Shown piece by piece: positions 4,459 to 34,629 of a DNA stretch of 64,000 nucleotides. The notes beneath the pieces are model-generated. The model saw nothing but the letters and a program-made list of their open reading frames with translations, was not told where the DNA came from and did not search any database. Numbering within the stretch: position 1 is the first letter of the stretch; each line of letters opens with the position of its first letter. Origin of the DNA: a phage. The position numbers and the translations under genes were made by a program. The stretch lies in sequence record NC_101835.1; one strand, 5' to 3'.

Positions 4459-4722
4459 ATGATTGTTTATTTTAAAACTTCAGGTGGATACCCTGATTCT
4501 CAAAGCTTGATCGGAAAAACGTGCACAGCATACTCACCTCTTGATGAGGAGGTAAGCGATATTTTACGAAATATGTATCGGATTGACCCCCAAGAAGCCT
4601 TTGATCAAAACCTTGTATTTGTCAAGGGCTCAGATATGAAGTCTTTGGGAGCATTCCCTGAAGCAGATGATGATGCCGTTTATTCGTTCATGACTCCTTT
4701 TGAAGCTATGGTTGTTGGGTGA
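4459..4722 (+). CDS. small acidic protein, paralog family 1 (copy C)
   Basis: GAGGTG RBS; GKTCTAY / FVKGSDMKSLGAF resemble family 1. Confidence 0.5.
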   Translation: MIVYFKTSGGYPDSQSLIGKTCTAYSPLDEEVSDILRNMYRIDPQEAFDQNLVFVKGSDMKSLGAFPEADDDAVYSFMTPFEAMVVG

Positions 4723-4726
4723 TAAT

Positions 4727-5059
4727 ATGAAAGTACGCTTTATTGGTGAAACAATTCCTGTGCATCTCCGGTCGCCTGAGGATTCTGCAGATCTTGCATC
4801 TCAAAAGGCGAGAGGTTATGATAAGAAAGTAACCTCAACCGATGTAGTGCTTGAGGCTACTAGTCTACCTGACCCTGCTGCATTCTTTAATCATTATGGG
4901 TACTATTTCAGCAATCTGATGAATATCGGTGAGCTTGTGTTTATTAGTGGTGGAGAAATTGTTAGCAAGCTTGGCGGCGATCCGGATATCTTTCATGAAA
5001 CCTGTCCTTTTGCATTTGTGGTAGGTTCAGATGTGGAAGTTATTGAGGAGGTGCGGTAA
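4727..5059 (+). CDS. small acidic protein, paralog family 1 (copy D)
   Basis: ATG at 4727 (track TTG 4700 less likely); C-terminal FVVGSDVEVIEE matches family 1. Confidence 0.5.
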   Translation: MKVRFIGETIPVHLRSPEDSADLASQKARGYDKKVTSTDVVLEATSLPDPAAFFNHYGYYFSNLMNIGELVFISGGEIVSKLGGDPDIFHETCPFAFVVGSDVEVIEEVR

Positions 5060-5454
5060 TGGTAAGCCTATACCGTGTTGAGTATAGCTCAGATACTGTA
5101 TACAACGTAAGAAGCAAAGATCGCAGCGACAGAGTGCAAGAAATGTATGTTCTTGCCGACAGTCCGTTATCTGCAGCGTTCAAGGCAGGGGCTCTTGCAT
5201 CTCGTTGGAAATTTGAAGGTGGATCTTTCTATGAAGAAACCCTTGAAGATTCTGTTGTTATTTCTTCTGTAGAGGTTTCAGATGACTACGAAGGGAAAAA
5301 GTTCGTAATGCGGCACCCACACAGCAACATTGCGTACTACTGGGATGTTCTGAACAACGAGTGGACCCCAGATCTTCAGAAGGCTACTGTGCTAACACCG
5401 TTTTTGGCAGATAAGTTCCCACCAGAAGGTAATTTATCCGCACTGTTTCAGTAA
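5059..5454 (+). CDS. hypothetical protein, paralog family 2 (copy B)
   Basis: GGAGGTG RBS; paralog of 2849-3247. Confidence 0.55.
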   Translation: MVSLYRVEYSSDTVYNVRSKDRSDRVQEMYVLADSPLSAAFKAGALASRWKFEGGSFYEETLEDSVVISSVEVSDDYEGKKFVMRHPHSNIAYYWDVLNNEWTPDLQKATVLTPFLADKFPPEGNLSALFQ

Positions 5455-9115: not shown

Positions 9116-9234
9116 AGCACCGAGCCCACACAGGTTCCTCATGCTAAAGCATGGCCTGAAGAGGCAAACGTGCATAATTCCTGCGCATTTGGACGTATAA
9201 TCCTGTTCACACTCTCATTTCCAGAGGAGATTTT

Positions 9235-9450
9235 ATGAAGATAGAGATATTTGGTGGAGCTGACAACACTCGTGGCCTGATTTACCTTGAATTCGATGAA
9301 TCATACCTGCCAGAGGTGTTAAATATAGACTCTGTTGCTGAGGCTTTGGGAGTAAACCCTAAAGAACTCCACTCTTGTGCTGAGATCGATGGTTGGGAAG
9401 AGACCATGAACATTGATTTCAGTGAAGTAGAGGATGAACCGCTGGACTGA
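9235..9450 (+). CDS. small acidic protein
   Basis: GAGGAG RBS; MKIEIFGG.. acidic; last rightward gene before the non-coding zone. Confidence 0.5.
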   Translation: MKIEIFGGADNTRGLIYLEFDESYLPEVLNIDSVAEALGVNPKELHSCAEIDGWEETMNIDFSEVEDEPLD

Positions 9451-9800
9451 CACACAATTAGCTGCCCGGCTAAAGTGCTGGAAGCACCTATAACACATCT
9501 TTCAACTAAATTTCCTACCACCACAATCACTTACCTCCCACACATGACTGTTTGCTTGTTTAGTGAGCAGTCATGCCTTGACATTCTTGCCTATCCTGAT
9601 AAAATTAAGTTCTTCTCTTTTCTTTTACCGAGTAATTCGGGTTTTCTGTTCTCTTCGGTTTGAAGGGGTATGGAGATACACCTGAGTGAACAGGGTGAAC
9701 AACCGAACCTTTGGCTATGGCATTAGCATGGCGAAGCGGACGGGTGACGAAAGAGGGGCCGGAGGACACCAGTCACTGCCATATGATATATGGGTGATAA

Positions 9801-10342
9801 CCTGAAGAGTCTGAATAAGTGTTTAAGTACCAGTCAGAGGAAAAGGTGAATGGTAGCCGAAGGGGGGAGGGGGGTTTCTTGTATCTTTAATTTGTATATT
9901 ATGTATACACTTGTAAACCAATCTAATCTGAATCTGTTTACCACACAAAGCGGATAGAGACAAATATTGCCTATTAAACTTGAATTATTTATAGAAAATA
10001 CCACAACACTACTTAAGTCTTTGATTTTACACACAAATCCTGCAGATATTCACCCTCCATATTTAACATACTTGTAACATATTCCATACTCTACCTGCCC
10101 GATCAATTCACCCAACTACATCCCCATATTTTCCCTGTCTGTACTACCCCTGCCCCGCCGGGAGTCCCATCATATCTGGCTTTCCAGCAAATATCACACC
10201 CACAAATATCATTGCCTGAAGAGGGTTTCATCCCATAATACCTGCCTTACCTGAAGAGCGCTTCATACACCACGTAAATTTTTTAATTGACCTCCCCCTG
10301 CCCCGCCGGAGAGGTTGGCTTTTCCCACACAGACCTGAAGAG
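9801..10342. repeat. dispersed direct repeats (CCTGAAGAG x4; CCCCTGCCCCGCCGG x2)
   Basis: CCTGAAGAG at 9801, 10215, 10250, 10334; CCCCTGCCCCGCCGG at 10148 and about 10295; GACCTACAGG x2 near 10390-10450. Confidence 0.5.
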
Positions 10343-10918
10343 TCAGCCAGAAATATCTGAATAGGCCCAATTCTACCACGATTTTGACCTGACCTACAGG
10401 GAGGCCCGAAGGGTCTAGCTTTCAGCTAGAGTCCTTGCAGGACCTACAGGAGCGCTGCCAGGCGGACGGAATGGGAATACTTCTCATTCTTATAACAATT
10501 CTCAAATATCGAGGCAGTGAGAGAAATTAATAGGCCAGGCCGTTCACACAGTGGCACAACATTTGCAACCTATTTTGTGTGGATGAATGAGAATACCTAT
10601 CATTATGAGAATAGTTATCATTACTGGCAATTTAACATAATACCCATTATGCGCACCACTGGCGATCCATACAGGGATTGATAACATGAGTTACTGTTTA
10701 CGCATATAACAATTATATTTATTACTATTTGTGTTGGGTATAGTTAGCAGCCGATAGATTAGATATTGACCTGCAGACTTCCAACTGTCTAGACGTCTAA
10801 ACGCCCACACAGCAAGGATTATACATACACAACTGAATGTAAACAGGGCCGCAAAAATGCTACCATACCAGATTGTAAATTTTTCATGCAGCACTTGACA
10901 AAGAGGAGGAAAACTTGT

Positions 10919-10960
10919 CTGACATACTGTGACATAATATGACATAATAGTGACACACTG
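10919..10960. repeat. tandem 10-11 bp iterons (TGACATA-type)
   Basis: tgacatactg / tgacataata / tgacataatag / tgacacactg in direct tandem. Confidence 0.5.
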
Positions 10961-11052
10961 GGCATACTCAACACTGGATACAATAACAATTGTTACTATT
11001 GCATGCCTCACTGTTCACGCATAGATGATAAGCCATGCCATTCGTTTGCATG

Positions 11053-11312
11053 ACAATAATTAACTTGTTTACAATCTTTCACTGGCTATGCCAGGTGACC
11101 TTTGGTCACCCCTTCGGGTGTTTCTATGACATAATATAAAAGCAGGGCAACTATTAGAAGATCTATAGTTGCCTTGCTTGTTATGTCATGATTAACTAAA
11201 TACAAGGCAACTATGATCTGATTAATAGATTGCAGACAAACTATCACGGGGGTGATGGTTACTGCTTTTATATTATGTCGCGACTCCGTCGCGCCATGCC
11301 ATTCGTTTGCAT
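11053..11312. repeat. inverted-repeat element bracketed by 19-bp direct repeats
   Basis: CCATGCCATTCGTTTGCAT at 11053-11071 and 11294-11312; inverted arms 11127-11146 and 11262-11279; palindrome 11147-11174; GGCAACTAT 9-mer x4 in alternating orientation. Confidence 0.5.
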
Positions 11313-11972
11313 AGTTGCCTTATTGTTACAGGTAAAATAATTACATTATTAATTATTTCTTATCTTTCTCTTAGTCATCTAATGATTCCAGTCAGTATAG
11401 TAATGTACAGTAAACATTAGACGACTAAATATTTCTCTGTTTATGATAACTCACCGTGACAATTTCGGACTGTTTACGAAAAATGTTGACACCTAAGCTG
11501 ATTTATGTTATGCAGTTTACACGAATAATTATTTTATGCAGGTATTGACTATTCCGTTATTCTGTGGTTGGAATAAATACTTTGCAGGCTATAGAATGGC
11601 GTGCGTACATGAATTCTGAGATCTGGCGGCTATAGTTATACTCGATTTTTCACGTAGAACACGCTTTTTAGTTTGTGTAAGTGTATGACTTATAAGAATT
11701 TTTACTTGTTGACAAGATATTGAAGATCTGCATCAGGTTAAAATTTGTGCAATAGCTGCATTACGTGCAATTTTGGAAGGGAAAACGGGTAAAAATAGCC
11801 CTGCTACCACACAATGAAAAGTTATGCAATAGTTATTTTACATGTATATTTGTACAGTGTGTGGGGTTGATGGCTCGTCAATTATTCCACTTGCCAGGTA
11901 GGGCCGTTTATGGTAGGAGAAGAGCAGACAAAAAGAAAGGGGCCTAAGCCCCTTGATAATTCAGTTAAAAAA

Positions 11973-12392
11973 TTATAATGATTCGTATATTTCAAAAATC
12001 CGATTTGCCAGGTCGTTACGGTAGCGGAATTTTTCCTCACGTTTGATCATAAGATCTTTATAGCCGTACTCTTTAAGCACTTCATTAACTTTATGGCGGC
12101 ATACTTTCATATTATCCTGCGCGTCACCAATAAATCTGTTGCTATGGTGCATGGCTTTAATTTCTTCTTCCAGGACCAGGGCAACTATGCGGACCGGATC
12201 AAGCTGATAGGCGGTAACATCCATGCGGCATTGTAAACGGCTTTTTACGTCTGCCACCGGATATACTGCAACCTCTTCCCCGTCAACATTGACAATAATT
12301 AGTTTACCATCGATTTCGAATCCTTTCGCCGCCGGACCGTGACAAAAAGCGTTATCAAAGCTATATGCCGGATTATTAGATTTAATGTTCAT
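11973..12392 (-). CDS. hypothetical protein
   Basis: AAGAGG RBS before ATG; last gene of the leftward array. Confidence 0.55.
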   Translation of the reverse strand: MNIKSNNPAYSFDNAFCHGPAAKGFEIDGKLIIVNVDGEEVAVYPVADVKSRLQCRMDVTAYQLDPVRIVALVLEEEIKAMHHSNRFIGDAQDNMKVCRHKVNEVLKEYGYKDLMIKREEKFRYRNDLANRIFEIYESL

Positions 12393-22027: not shown

Positions 22028-22069
22028 TTTTGTACCTCCTCTTCAATTGTTACCTATCCTATAGCATAG

Positions 22070-23040
22070 GCCCACCAGGTTTACAAGCCTTCATTCTCCC
22101 CTACCTGGTCAGTTAGGTCCTGCCAGGCTGGCCCCGCCAGGTTGCAGCGGTTAGCGCATCAGGTTAGAAAAATTTTTTGAAAAGTGTTGACAGCGGCCCC
22201 GCCAGGTGGCACAATATACCTATCGAAAGGACGGCAGGCACTGGTGACGGGGGAGACAACCACCGGGGATGGGCGCTGCATAAAATGAGAACGATTATCA
22301 TTATCATTTAAAAATTTATGCAAAAAATCCTTGCTTTCTTTGTCCTGTGTGATACTATAATAACAAGCCGGGGCAACAGGGGCCGGGAGACAATCACCGG
22401 GCCTGCCCGTTATTCTGCAAACGAGAATGATTATCATTCAAAATTCTAAATGAGAACTCCTCGCATTTAATAAATTTAATTAGCACGCTAATTACCTACC
22501 GTGACAATTATATATAAAATAATACCTCCTAAAATATTTCCATATACAAATTTTAAAAATCCATTTCTGAAAACGAAAAATCGATTTCGTCCCCAAAAAT
22601 TTCAGGTCGAGATCCGGAACGATTTCCAGAAAATCCGATTTAGAAAACGAAAAACAGATCGAGTACTGAGAAATTTATCGAGAAAAATTTTCAGAAAATC
22701 CAAGCCATGAAATGAAAAGTAGATCGAGTACTGGAAAAATTGTACCGCAACCCACTGATAGTGATGGGTTTTCCGTCATAAATCACTAAGAGTGAGTGGA
22801 GAAAGGTATGGTGGAGAGGTGTGTATGTGTGGGAAATCTGTAATGGTGGCCTGAAATATGGTGCAAACGGCTAGATAGATTGGCACAATTTTCCGCGCCT
22901 GTGTTGAAAAAATCCATTTTAGTTTTCGATCCATTTTCTGATTTTCTAAGGATTTTAAAATATCCTGGTAGGTAAAATATCAAAAGGAGGAAATCCATTT
23001 TAGAAATCCCCCTTATACTTGATATGCCAGGAATTTTCAA
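22070..23040. repeat. non-coding repeat island (GC-rich motifs, tandem about 60-nt units, AT-rich iterons)
   Basis: GGCCCCGCCAGGT x2; two units GGGAGACAA(C/T)CACCGGG...GAGAA(C/T)GATTATCATT; 22500-23040 has repeated AAAATCCATTT(T/C) and AGATCGAGTACTG. Confidence 0.5.
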
Positions 23041-31929: not shown

Positions 31930-32205
31930 CAATAGTTCAGGTAGGTCGTTAAGCTACCCCGCACCATTACGTGCATAGCCATACGTTTTCACGTAGGATC
32001 GGACCATCTCATATTCCTATGATAAGCAACCACAGGAATCCTCCCATTTCGACCGCACTTGCTGGTCTACTTCCTTTCGGAATGGCCTCTGAGCGTTCGC
32101 TCTTTTGAGCGCTTCGTTGCGGATTACCTTGCCATAAGGTTTAGGCTTCCCGCAGTTAAAGAGGTTATTCGACATAGATTACTCTATGAAGCCACAATGT
32201 TATTT
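31930..32205 (-). other. putative group I self-splicing intron in DNA polymerase gene
   Basis: 276 nt between ..YYH and DE..; 5-prime exon ends in U, intron ends in G; GUGG near intron start can pair with exon CCAU; P-like AACUGCGGGAAGCC and Q-like AAUCCGCAACG; GAAA-capped hairpins. Confidence 0.5.
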
Positions 32206-34629
32206 ATGGTAATAAATAATACGACGAACACCTTCATCGTACCACCCACGCTTCACCATTTGGTGGTGCATAAGTATCCCAACCAAGTCACACAGCGATG
32301 CACCACCATTCTGTTGATATGCATTAAGTAAAGAGTGTTTAGATCGGGTCCAGATGGCATGACCATCAAAAGAGTAGATAAACTTCTTACCCGTTGCTTC
32401 CCAGAATTTCTCCAGATCCTCTTTACGGCCCTTAAGACCAGGGTTGGCATCCCAAAGCGCATCGATTACCCTTTGTCCCAACTCTGGAGAGATGTCCAGC
32501 ATATCTGCAACTTTATCTTTTTGTGCCCCGTACATAACCCCATACGTGATAGGTTTACCGTCGTTACGGGACACCTCTCTACCTGCTACTTTTGTATATG
32601 CCTCAGCATTGTTTTGGTGTGCGTCCCCGTTACTTACAACATCGTAATACAGGCCGTTGTCGAACTCAAAGGCACCCCAAGCCCCGATAAGCTGCTCTAA
32701 GTTGGACCCGTCAATACCGATCTCAAAGTATCCCGGAGGAACACCCCACAGACTACGCATCTCTTTACCCATAACCACTTTAGGAGATGGTTTAGGCATG
32801 TTTGCACAAATACTGTGTTTCTGTCTGGAAGTGTTTGTTAATCCAGAGCTTTTAGCAGGAAGCTTATGGTCAATCTTCAAACGTGGGTGATTAAGAAGAC
32901 CAGTGTCAACCTTATCCTCCTTGATTGGATCAAGTACCGATCTGCGGTTTCGCAATGATAACCATAAGACGATATCTTTAGCCATCTCTCCGTTCAATTT
33001 TTCAAGATTCGGACACAGGTGTCCAAACGTATCTTTCAGTTGCGGAGAAGTAATAAGTGCCCTAGCTTTTCTACGTATTTTCCCGAATACTTCCTTTTTA
33101 ATCCTTTCGGAGTTAGGAAAGCTTCGGAACTTGTGCACTGTTGTCTGAAACTTAGCATCAGTTTTGTTCCAGAAGTTGATAATTAGGTCACAATACTCTG
33201 ACTCTAAAAGCTCGTCCATGTATGCATATACTCGTGCATCAACATCTGCATCAGGTAGAGCTTTCTTCTTGCTGTCTTTAGTTACATCCTTAGTTCTCCA
33301 CATTGTCGGAAGCCAACCAGCACTGATCAGGTATCGCTTAATGTCGTCCTGATTGCTGATTTTCATAGGTATCTTGCAGTCAGGCATTCGCTTCTGCTGC
33401 AGATCGCTTATTGCCTGATCCATCAGCTCTTTAGGCAAAGGTTGTGGTGTGGAGGTGCCCTTAATATAACCTCTCAAGAAATCAGCCATCTTGTCGGGGT
33501 CTTTGCAGCCCATCTCTTCACACCATTTTATCCCCATCTTACTGACATCTCCTGTGGAGGTAAATGCTCTCTTAGGCGGGGCTTTGAACTCTAGAGCGCT
33601 CATGTCTACAGGATAGCCAAGCTTATCTTTTAACCATTTCCAACCATTATTAGAGATTGTCCCGTCTTGGTTAAACGGCTTTTCAGGGAACTTGGGCCGC
33701 TGAGACATTGACAGCTCTTTTAAAGGCAGTTGTGGTTCAACACGATCAGCGATTTCTTTCATCCACGCATCGCAACGGTCACGTAAAGCAATAGCTCCAT
33801 CTATGTCGAAGTATACACCCTGACGGGCCTGCAGCTCCATCAGGAAGTGCTGCAGCATGCCTCGACGTAATGCGTTCTTCCAGGTGATCTTCTTGAACCC
33901 TTTCGGCTTCTCTTTGGCAGGATCGTACATAAAGTTCTGCATGTCAGATTTGCCGTAGAATACACCTTTTGATTCCGCTACCAGTTCTTTCCAGAGCAGC
34001 TCCTGGATGATAACGTCCTCAAATACACGATCCACATACTTCCACAACGGAAGATCGCGCCAGTCATCAATTTGAACTTTCTGGTTACCAAGGGCATAGC
34101 CCCATGCCATAAGGCCGTGGGGACCAACAGGCTGCATTTTCTTAGTAACCGGGTTGAATACAGCGTCCGGACAACCTTTTGGTAAAGGGCGATCAGGCCA
34201 CAAGATTCGGCTCATCGCCAACGTATCAAACAGGTTAACCTGGTGGTCGTTGATAGTCCCCATGCATTTAGGATCACGGAACATATCAAAATGAATACCG
34301 GATAATCTTTCCATCAGCATAAAGTCATAACTGTAGCAGTTATGGCAGTTCAAAGCTGTTGGTGACCAGTCGGAATTGCCTGTAAGCCAACCTTCCAACT
34401 CCGAAAAATCTGCTATGCGAACTTCAAAACCTTTATAAAGAGTTTTCTTTGCCAGAATGAAGTTCTTAGCCTTTTCTATATCCTCCTCGGAGTAGTGTGT
34501 GCGGTCATTTAGAGGAAGGAACAGCATAAAACGGTTCTTATTCAGCTCTTTAAACAGGCCGCAGTGATAATAAAGATCTGGATCTTCCAAAAGCCCTGAG
34601 GCCTCCAGATCGAAGCACCAATTACTCAT
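32200..34629 (-). CDS. DNA polymerase (family A, T7 gp5-like), N-terminal 808 aa / putative exon 1
   Basis: N-terminal FDLEASGL..HCG exonuclease motif like T7 gp5; motif A region IGIDGSNLEQL; motif B KPITYGVMYGAQ; ORF stops at ..RIIYYHK, i.e. at motif C. Confidence 0.85.
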   Translation of the reverse strand: MSNWCFDLEASGLLEDPDLYYHCGLFKELNKNRFMLFLPLNDRTHYSEEDIEKAKNFILAKKTLYKGFEVRIADFSELEGWLTGNSDWSPTALNCHNCYSYDFMLMERLSGIHFDMFRDPKCMGTINDHQVNLFDTLAMSRILWPDRPLPKGCPDAVFNPVTKKMQPVGPHGLMAWGYALGNQKVQIDDWRDLPLWKYVDRVFEDVIIQELLWKELVAESKGVFYGKSDMQNFMYDPAKEKPKGFKKITWKNALRRGMLQHFLMELQARQGVYFDIDGAIALRDRCDAWMKEIADRVEPQLPLKELSMSQRPKFPEKPFNQDGTISNNGWKWLKDKLGYPVDMSALEFKAPPKRAFTSTGDVSKMGIKWCEEMGCKDPDKMADFLRGYIKGTSTPQPLPKELMDQAISDLQQKRMPDCKIPMKISNQDDIKRYLISAGWLPTMWRTKDVTKDSKKKALPDADVDARVYAYMDELLESEYCDLIINFWNKTDAKFQTTVHKFRSFPNSERIKKEVFGKIRRKARALITSPQLKDTFGHLCPNLEKLNGEMAKDIVLWLSLRNRRSVLDPIKEDKVDTGLLNHPRLKIDHKLPAKSSGLTNTSRQKHSICANMPKPSPKVVMGKEMRSLWGVPPGYFEIGIDGSNLEQLIGAWGAFEFDNGLYYDVVSNGDAHQNNAEAYTKVAGREVSRNDGKPITYGVMYGAQKDKVADMLDISPELGQRVIDALWDANPGLKGRKEDLEKFWEATGKKFIYSFDGHAIWTRSKHSLLNAYQQNGGASLCDLVGILMHHQMVKRGWYDEGVRRIIYYHK

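Follow-up and report, generated by a model that had tools for sequence, protein, structure and literature searches.

A gene-free gap between converging operons of a Vequintavirus genome as the probable terminal-repeat junction, with a candidate structured RNA in its left arm

Why does a phage keep some 2.5 kb of DNA without genes between two converging operons? The question is raised by a stretch of 64,000 nucleotides (sequence record NC_101835.1; the window, in which all positions are counted), where the final rightward open reading frame (ORF) stops at 9450, the first leftward one stops at 11973 and positions 9451-11972 are left between them. The source phage is a Vequintavirus, that is, an rV5-like Escherichia coli myovirus of about 137 kb. 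A first-pass annotation had delimited a gap of this size between convergent genes, as the ORF ends bear out, and had considered such a length unusual in a compact phage genome. The length stands, and the supposed singularity does not: such a gap is regularly present throughout the subfamily, and the rV5 paper, which called the genome circularly permuted, had already drawn this locus (between ORF 163 and ORF 164) as a grey "non-coding" box without a function (Kropinski et al. 2013). The literature searched contains no paper that gives the gap a function. About 120 deposited phage genomes match it at 88-96% identity, all of them rV5-like and of the genus Vequintavirus; most annotators have left the homologous stretch empty, and some call short ORFs there. 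Among these genomes are about 19 UNVERIFIED "Campylobacter phage" records (MG065635-MG065690, labelled as Campylobacter jejuni phages), which across the gap share 88-96% identity with rV5-like phages of E. coli and whose host label looks doubtful. Overall, the likely explanation of the locus, and the best that we can offer, is a terminal-repeat junction accompanied by an RNA unit in its left arm and a nest of inverted repeats in its right arm.

The evidence for genome ends comes from relatives. Positions 10461-10919, from GGCGGACGG to AACTTGTC, are the homologue of a 459-bp direct terminal repeat that relatives carry at both ends of the virion DNA. In the record of vB_EcoM_Gotham (Gotham), a repeat_region annotated at 1-459 and 136567-137025 aligns to this unit, the EdH4 record has an exact 459-nucleotide repeat at both ends, and the unit in the window is 93-96% identical to the Vequintavirus repeats, with both boundary sequences present. 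Terminal redundancies of 458 bp were reported for EdH4 and HdK5, the ends being set where most PacBio reads stop abruptly (Korf et al. 2019). For Klebsiella phage KPP-1 (Mydovirus), a 514-bp repeat has been described, with twofold coverage confined to the repeat and a T7-type call by PhageTerm; it sits in the same kind of convergent, gene-poor gap. Deposited records point to the same boundaries: version 2 of bov10K2 opens exactly at 10461 and closes at 10460, an exact start or stop on the 10461-10919 unit is also seen in Pr121LW, ECP2303, ECP2309, bov22_2 and Aya, and in all at least nine records have an end precisely at a repeat boundary. In 241Ecol014PP the break falls inside the unit, about 50 bases short of the boundary. 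Two copies of the repeat are present in 8 of 119 records. Shigella phage CM1 (L002, MK962749.1) has the unit twice in tandem at 4555-5076, starting at the position equivalent to 10461, which is probably an artefact of joining both ends, with both terminal copies kept on circularisation; two annotated "hypothetical proteins" of CM1 span the duplication.

Compared with the terminal repeats of the Vequintavirinae (458 bp in EdH4 and HdK5, 459 bp in Gotham and 514 bp in KPP-1), the locus has the same Vequintavirus sequence, the same boundaries and the same placement between convergent operons, and the repeat itself is identical in kind; the difference is that the ends are here inferred, not measured. 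The terminal repeat is already known for the genus, though it has been applied inconsistently. The gap is thus very probably the terminal region of a linear genome that has short direct repeats at its ends, or in other words its concatemer junction, and the suggestion of the first-pass annotation that it may hold the genome termini or the packaging site is supported by homology.

Several points weigh against this assignment. The window contains a single, internal copy of the repeat, and the ends of the source phage are placed by homology only. The rV5 paper describes a circularly permuted genome, PhageTerm calls the bov Vequintaviruses "circular permutated" and BpE1AUH headful, and most records are opened elsewhere. 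These observations would suit headful packaging with circular permutation, in which the gap would provide a pac site at best and the "459-bp repeat" would be a convention of assembly or orientation. Such a convention does not sit well with records of several separate submissions that begin or end on the same two bases, with the EdH4 ends, which were taken from abrupt ends of long reads, with a KPP-1 coverage doubling that is confined to the repeat, or with bov records that were re-opened at 10461 in version 2. It is also common for PhageTerm to miss fixed ends in transposase-made libraries. We have weighed the coincident ends of separate submissions and the long-read evidence more heavily than the permuted and headful calls, and regard headful packaging as quite improbable.

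With fixed ends, one 459-bp copy (10461-10919) would lie where two units of the replicating concatemer meet, flanked by the right arm of one and the left arm of the following unit, and the terminase would cut at fixed positions, at both repeat boundaries. The repeat would be duplicated, and every virion DNA would begin at 10461 and finish at 10919, in a packaging mode resembling the T7 type and not headful packaging. Both flanking operons would be transcribed toward the junction and would stop before reaching it, at a hairpin (9543-9575) and a terminator (11937-11954), leaving about 1 kb of non-coding DNA on either side for cis-acting functions. This arrangement is like that of a T7-type concatemer junction in having a repeat of a few hundred bp with fixed ends, nearby inverted repeats that could fold back in single strands, and transcription toward the junction. 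The resemblance is in layout only: unlike T7, the phage is a 137-kb myovirus that is not known to have a T7-like RNA polymerase, and its inverted repeats are found 200-400 bp inward of the left end and not to the left of the repeat. For the T7 junction itself, a model of hairpin-primed duplication was reportedly put forward by Chung, Nardone and Hinkle in 1990.

The placement of the ends has practical consequences. Phages of the rV5 type are isolated widely and serve in the biocontrol of E. coli O157 and in therapy cocktails; most of their deposited genomes have an arbitrary opening point, and they are still described as circularly permuted in several papers. True ends in the gap would fix the orientation and annotation of the genome, would identify the packaging class and with it a factor in the risk of generalised transduction, and would show where cis-acting packaging signals must stay in engineered phages.

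A junction that is bounded by its genes still has to be shown free of them, as the first-pass annotation had claimed in finding no credible ORF. We aligned a 5.5-kb neighbourhood in 12 genomes, and all figures of variability given here are percentages of variable sites in that alignment. The longest ORFs of the gap are intact in just 1-7 of the 12 genomes (a 106-codon ORF at 10691-11011 on the minus strand in two of the aligned relatives, and a 66-codon one at 9834-10034, also on the minus strand, in one), whereas the flanking genes are intact in 11-12 of the 12. Variable sites in flanking genes pile up in one codon phase, with counts over the three phases of 6/3/30, 50/7/12 and 53/6/6; codon periodicity is absent from every part of the gap. 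The coding potential of the gap ORFs was rejected because the ORFs are not conserved and no codon periodicity is seen, and the claim of a gap without credible ORFs is upheld on both counts. A 39-codon ORF at 9686-9805, noticed by eye, was rejected since its frame is lost through a 1-nucleotide insertion in a sister lineage described below. Genes for transfer RNA and transfer-messenger RNA were looked for, and none was found.

Conservation along the gap is highly uneven. The block at 9551-9880 has 6.7% variable sites, the lowest value of the entire 5.5-kb alignment and below that of the flanking genes (11-27%), and a second block at 11126-11330 has 10%; the rest of the gap varies at 22-29% of sites, and the segment 10920-11125 at 53%. 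Hypervariable, indel-rich segments abut both boundaries of the repeat, at 10400-10450 and at 10920-11125. A more distant comparison is provided by an uncultured Vequintavirus sister lineage, here called clade B, which comprises contigs of 121-140 kb (L007, that is, IMGVR_UViG_3300045988_159287, and L017, L019, L021, L022, L031, L032 and L040), is not closely related to any of 50,697 deposited phage genomes, and has neighbouring genes that are mostly not alignable with those of Vequintavirus at the DNA level. In DNA searches of the other genera of the Vequintavirinae, similarity was found nowhere beyond Vequintavirus and this one sister lineage. In the clade B gap (L007 5421-8935 and related contigs), a homing endonuclease gene of the HNH type is inserted between the candidate RNA discussed below and the repeat region.

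The inserted endonuclease gene, the short ORFs called by some annotators and the two hypervariable, indel-rich segments might suggest that coding sequence in decay, or the remains of mobile elements, make up the gap and do no more than separate two operons. Decay of this kind is very hard to believe in, as the two conserved blocks are less variable (6.7% and 10%) than the neighbouring genes, the layout is kept across three lineages, and there is neither a conserved ORF nor codon periodicity.

The first of the conserved blocks includes a promoter. At 9578-9605 on the plus strand lies a sigma-70-type promoter with TTGACA, a 16-nucleotide spacer, TAAAAT and a TG upstream of the -10 element (extended -10), which matches the consensus at 11 of 12 positions. 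Clade B has a promoter at the same place, with TTGCAA, a 17-nucleotide spacer of different sequence, TATAAT and the TG. The left arm would form an independent transcription unit in which this near-consensus promoter drives a G-rich RNA of about 260-270 nucleotides (9606-9874, plus strand; predicted start near 9612), with at least three conserved helices and conserved unpaired blocks, ending in a G6AG6 tract; the RNA would be transcribed by the host polymerase and would hence probably be early. The element is kept in clade B at about 75% identity, and the indels between the two lineages measure 1, 2, 5 and 19 nucleotides, which rules out a shared reading frame. Unpaired blocks that are conserved include CUGAGUGAACAGGGUGAACAACCGAA, which starts at 9682, the series CUGAGUGAACAG-GUGAACA-CCGAA and a loop, GUUUAAGUACCAG, at 9821-9833. 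The G6AG6 tract at 9862-9874, which is G5UAG5 in clade B, closes the element, and conservation ends just after it.

The case for an RNA is made by its pairing. Three helices of the candidate stand out, P2 (9628-9640), P3 (9643-9676) and P8 (9810-9838), the last of which presents the conserved loop, all on the plus strand. Within clade B alone, four of the eight P8 pairs vary and none is broken; two pairs, in five cells, have changed on both sides, an outcome that none of 500 shuffles reaches. A covariance model built from clade B alone recovers every clade A (that is, Vequintavirus) copy, with scores of 44-58 bits and E values of 1e-13 to 1e-18, and finds nothing in KPP-1, in the very divergent contig L009 or in the chance hits of a metagenome pattern search, where 11 of 20 matches are due to chance and lack the other conserved motifs of the element. 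In the alignment across both lineages, 90% of cells are paired and 17 pairs have changed on both sides, against 1-5 in slid controls, with pairing at 94.7% in P3 (13 pairs) and 99.3% in P8 (9 pairs). The large number of G-U pairs among those kept favors an RNA read from the plus strand over a structure in DNA.

The same conserved block could act as DNA, as a recognition site for terminase and packaging or for some other protein near the right genome end, the promoter-like site being incidental or helping to open the DNA. Its fixed position some 600-900 bp to the left of the repeat, its extreme sequence conservation and the weak thermodynamic support for the fold are in line with such a site, as is the presence within 9551-9880 of CCTGAAGAG, which recurs as a DNA motif across genera. 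A protein-binding site does not account for P2, P3 and P8, which change in sequence and keep complementarity, or for the many kept G-U pairs, which on the other strand are C-A mismatches and meaningless in duplex DNA; nor does it explain why the -35 element, the spacing, the TG and the -10 element are kept in both lineages while the spacer sequence drifts. We consider a site of this kind rather unlikely.

Some results also weigh against a functional RNA. The candidate (9611-9900, plus strand) is no more stable than shuffled sequence (z-score, z = -0.9), the P8 hairpin alone is weak in the window (z = +0.4), and of nine helices no more than three are robust. When both lineages are aligned naively with MAFFT, the consensus fold is poor, at -22 kcal/mol as compared with about -84 kcal/mol for single sequences. 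The cross-lineage alignment was fitted to the structure of the model and therefore leans toward structure, although the slid controls still score far lower; and since there are effectively two lineages only, independent compensatory events are few. The G tract is not followed by a canonical terminator, which leaves the 3' end of the RNA undefined. A search for antisense targets of the candidate yielded none in the window and no match in 5,426 E. coli genomes, and no Vequintavirus transcriptome was found in the literature. On balance, we lean toward a functional RNA at 9606-9874, and the idea of the first-pass annotation that the gap may hold a non-coding RNA receives comparative support for this one element, from its conserved promoter and its compensatory pair changes. 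If the interpretation is correct, it would be a phage RNA transcribed by the host polymerase beside the end of the chromosome.

The candidate RNA gene appears to be new, with no Rfam family and no description in the literature searched. Neither a scan of the whole window at gathering thresholds nor one of the gap at E up to 10 gave a credible Rfam match within the gap. The candidate is of the same kind as the phage-associated structured RNAs of Rfam (promoter-driven, structured and intergenic), and matches none of those families. A hammerhead ribozyme reading of CCUGAAGAG, which has a CUGANGA core, was rejected since there is no Rfam hammerhead match.

An origin of replication in the gap, as the first-pass annotation had also proposed, is possible. 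The gap might indeed be mainly an origin at which initiation, primed by transcription or assisted by DnaA, takes place in the AT-rich stretches next to the repeat, and to which the G-rich transcript or the inverted-repeat nest would belong; this would be compatible with the terminal repeat. The AT-rich stretches themselves (9951-10050 and 11336-11800), the repeated short sites and palindromes of the gap, and the promoter-driven G-rich RNA that ends in G6AG6 just ahead of one AT-rich stretch all fit with an origin, as do three perfect DnaA boxes that lie within 40 bp in clade B, in the region equivalent to the repeat. In the window there is no perfect DnaA box, the single one-mismatch box of the gap (10578-10586) is within chance, and the DnaA boxes of the window show no enrichment in the gap. 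The turns in GC skew, moreover, track the direction of transcription, as the rV5 authors also found. As the main role of the gap, an origin is doubtful.

A more specific role for the RNA can be imagined by analogy with ColE1 RNA II and with the mitochondrial light-strand transcript that ends at conserved sequence block II (CSB II), a G6AG8 tract, both of which are primer or R-loop-forming transcripts of replication origins. Like these systems, the left arm combines a promoter, a candidate folded G-rich RNA, an end in a two-run G tract (G6AG6, or G5UAG5 in clade B) and an AT-rich stretch directly after it; unlike them, it shares no sequence similarity with either, and the likeness is a lead only. 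The RNA at 9606-9874 might thus act in cis at the genome end, where transcription would stall at the G6AG6 tract and an RNA-DNA hybrid would be anchored there, before the AT-rich stretch, to prime or open replication, or the copying of the adjacent terminal repeat, as a counterpart of ColE1 RNA II or CSB II. We regard so detailed a role as improbable.

The second conserved block, on the other side of the repeat, is a nest of inverted repeats at 11120-11335 (10% variable sites), built from TGACATAATA and CAAGGCAACTAT units. Its outer arms are perfect over 18 nucleotides (11128-11145 with 11262-11279), CAAGGCAACTAT occurs in it four times in alternating orientation, and it folds with z = -8.6 on the plus and -8.2 on the minus strand. 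Analogous nests are found in clade B (z = -4.8) and in KPP-1 (z = -7.1). All three have perfect outer arms of 17-21 nucleotides with a GACAYAATA core near the outer ends, and their inner halves are completely different. Because the arms lie 82-164 nucleotides apart, they would pair only in single-stranded DNA or in RNA. An exact 20-nucleotide direct repeat, GCCATGCCATTCGTTTGCAT, flanks the nest at 11032-11051 and 11293-11312, the copies being 261 bp apart; a related pair in clade B (TATGCAACGATAACATGGCGCGAC, 243 bp apart, on the opposite strand) indicates that the flanking arrangement is conserved. The nest is a candidate signal for duplication of the repeat or for packaging, or may be a second RNA.

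Between the repeat and the nest lies the most variable segment of the gap (10920-11125; 53%, with frequent indels), just inside the left genome end, with TGACATAATA in tandem at 10930 and 10940. A promoter-like site on the plus strand at 10919-10948 (CTGACA, an 18-nucleotide spacer, CATAAT and a TG) begins at the final base of the terminal repeat and points inward, and each repeated TGACATAAT unit resembles an extended -10 element. Terminator-like hairpins lie on the plus strand at 11107-11120 and 11239-11260, and with the inward promoter-like site upstream of them, the left genome end may give rise to a second short transcript.

The strong hairpin at 9543-9575, directly after the last rightward gene (plus strand, -19.1 kcal/mol, z = -5.3), is terminator-like and has no U-run, and clade B has a hairpin of different sequence, ATACCTACCA...TGGTAGGTAT, at the equivalent place. 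On the other side, an intrinsic terminator of the leftward operon (11937-11954, minus strand) consists of AAGGGGCTTAGGCCCCTT followed by a T-run, and relatives annotate a terminator at the same place. These two ends of the converging operons together take up less than 60 bp and do not explain 2.5 kb. The left arm (9881-10460) varies at about the ordinary rate of the gap (27.6%) and is AT-rich at 9951-10050 (29% GC), then C-rich on the plus strand. It carries CCACACA-type motifs, three copies of CCTGAAGAG (10215, 10250 and 10334) and two of the 15-mer CCCCTGCCCCGCCGG (10147 and 10295), and its hypervariable piece, 10400-10450, is bracketed by GACCTACAGG. The right arm (11336-11936) is AT-rich, with 27-39% GC over most of its length, and contains weak promoter-like sites, imperfect 36-nucleotide repeats at 11712-11852, and two patches, 11626-11652 and 11690-11735, that are conserved in clade B.

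The short repeats listed by the first-pass annotation are all present where it had placed them. Five of the six copies of CCTGAAGAG in the window lie at 9155-10342 on the plus strand, with 0.58 expected and none of 100 shuffles reaching six; clade B has six copies and KPP-1 four, so that this is a motif of the subfamily. Two exact copies of the 10-mer GACCTACAGG are found at 10391 and 10441, and the 12-mer ACCGTGACAATT, at 11453 and 22498, is marginally enriched (5 of 100 shuffles). The palindromic site ATGAGAAnnnTTATCAT has three copies inside the terminal repeat (10471, 10587 and 10605), three more at 22285-22437 and several next to the KPP-1 repeat.

Both genes that border the gap encode hypothetical proteins. 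The last gene of the rightward operon (9235-9450, plus strand, 71 amino acids) is intact in 11 of the 12 relatives, and to it belong the phase counts 6/3/30. The last gene of the leftward operon (11973-12392, minus strand, 139 amino acids, phase counts 53/6/6) is accessory, being absent from four of the 12 (Gotham, pangalan, Alma and FV3). It is retained at 85-92% identity in the otherwise very divergent contigs L007 and L009, which suggests horizontal movement.

Elsewhere in the window, a second gene-free region at 22028-22775 contains two tandem units with strong sigma-70-like promoters (TTGACA at 22188, and TTGCTT...TATAAT near 22332-22361). In each unit the promoter is followed by about 80 G-rich nucleotides with a common core, GGGAGACAAYCACCGGG, and the palindrome ATGAGAAnnnTTATCAT forms the end; folding of the second unit has z = -2.2. 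This region and the gap have three motifs in common, ATGAGAAnnnTTATCAT, GCCCCGCC(A)GG and ACCGTGACAATT, and its units may be small RNA genes or regulated promoters. In rV5, the gene of the large terminase is described as split in three, with a homing endonuclease in one of the segments (Kropinski et al. 2013). A group I intron at 31980-32215 on the minus strand is the only Rfam match in the window (64.7 bits, E 4e-14).

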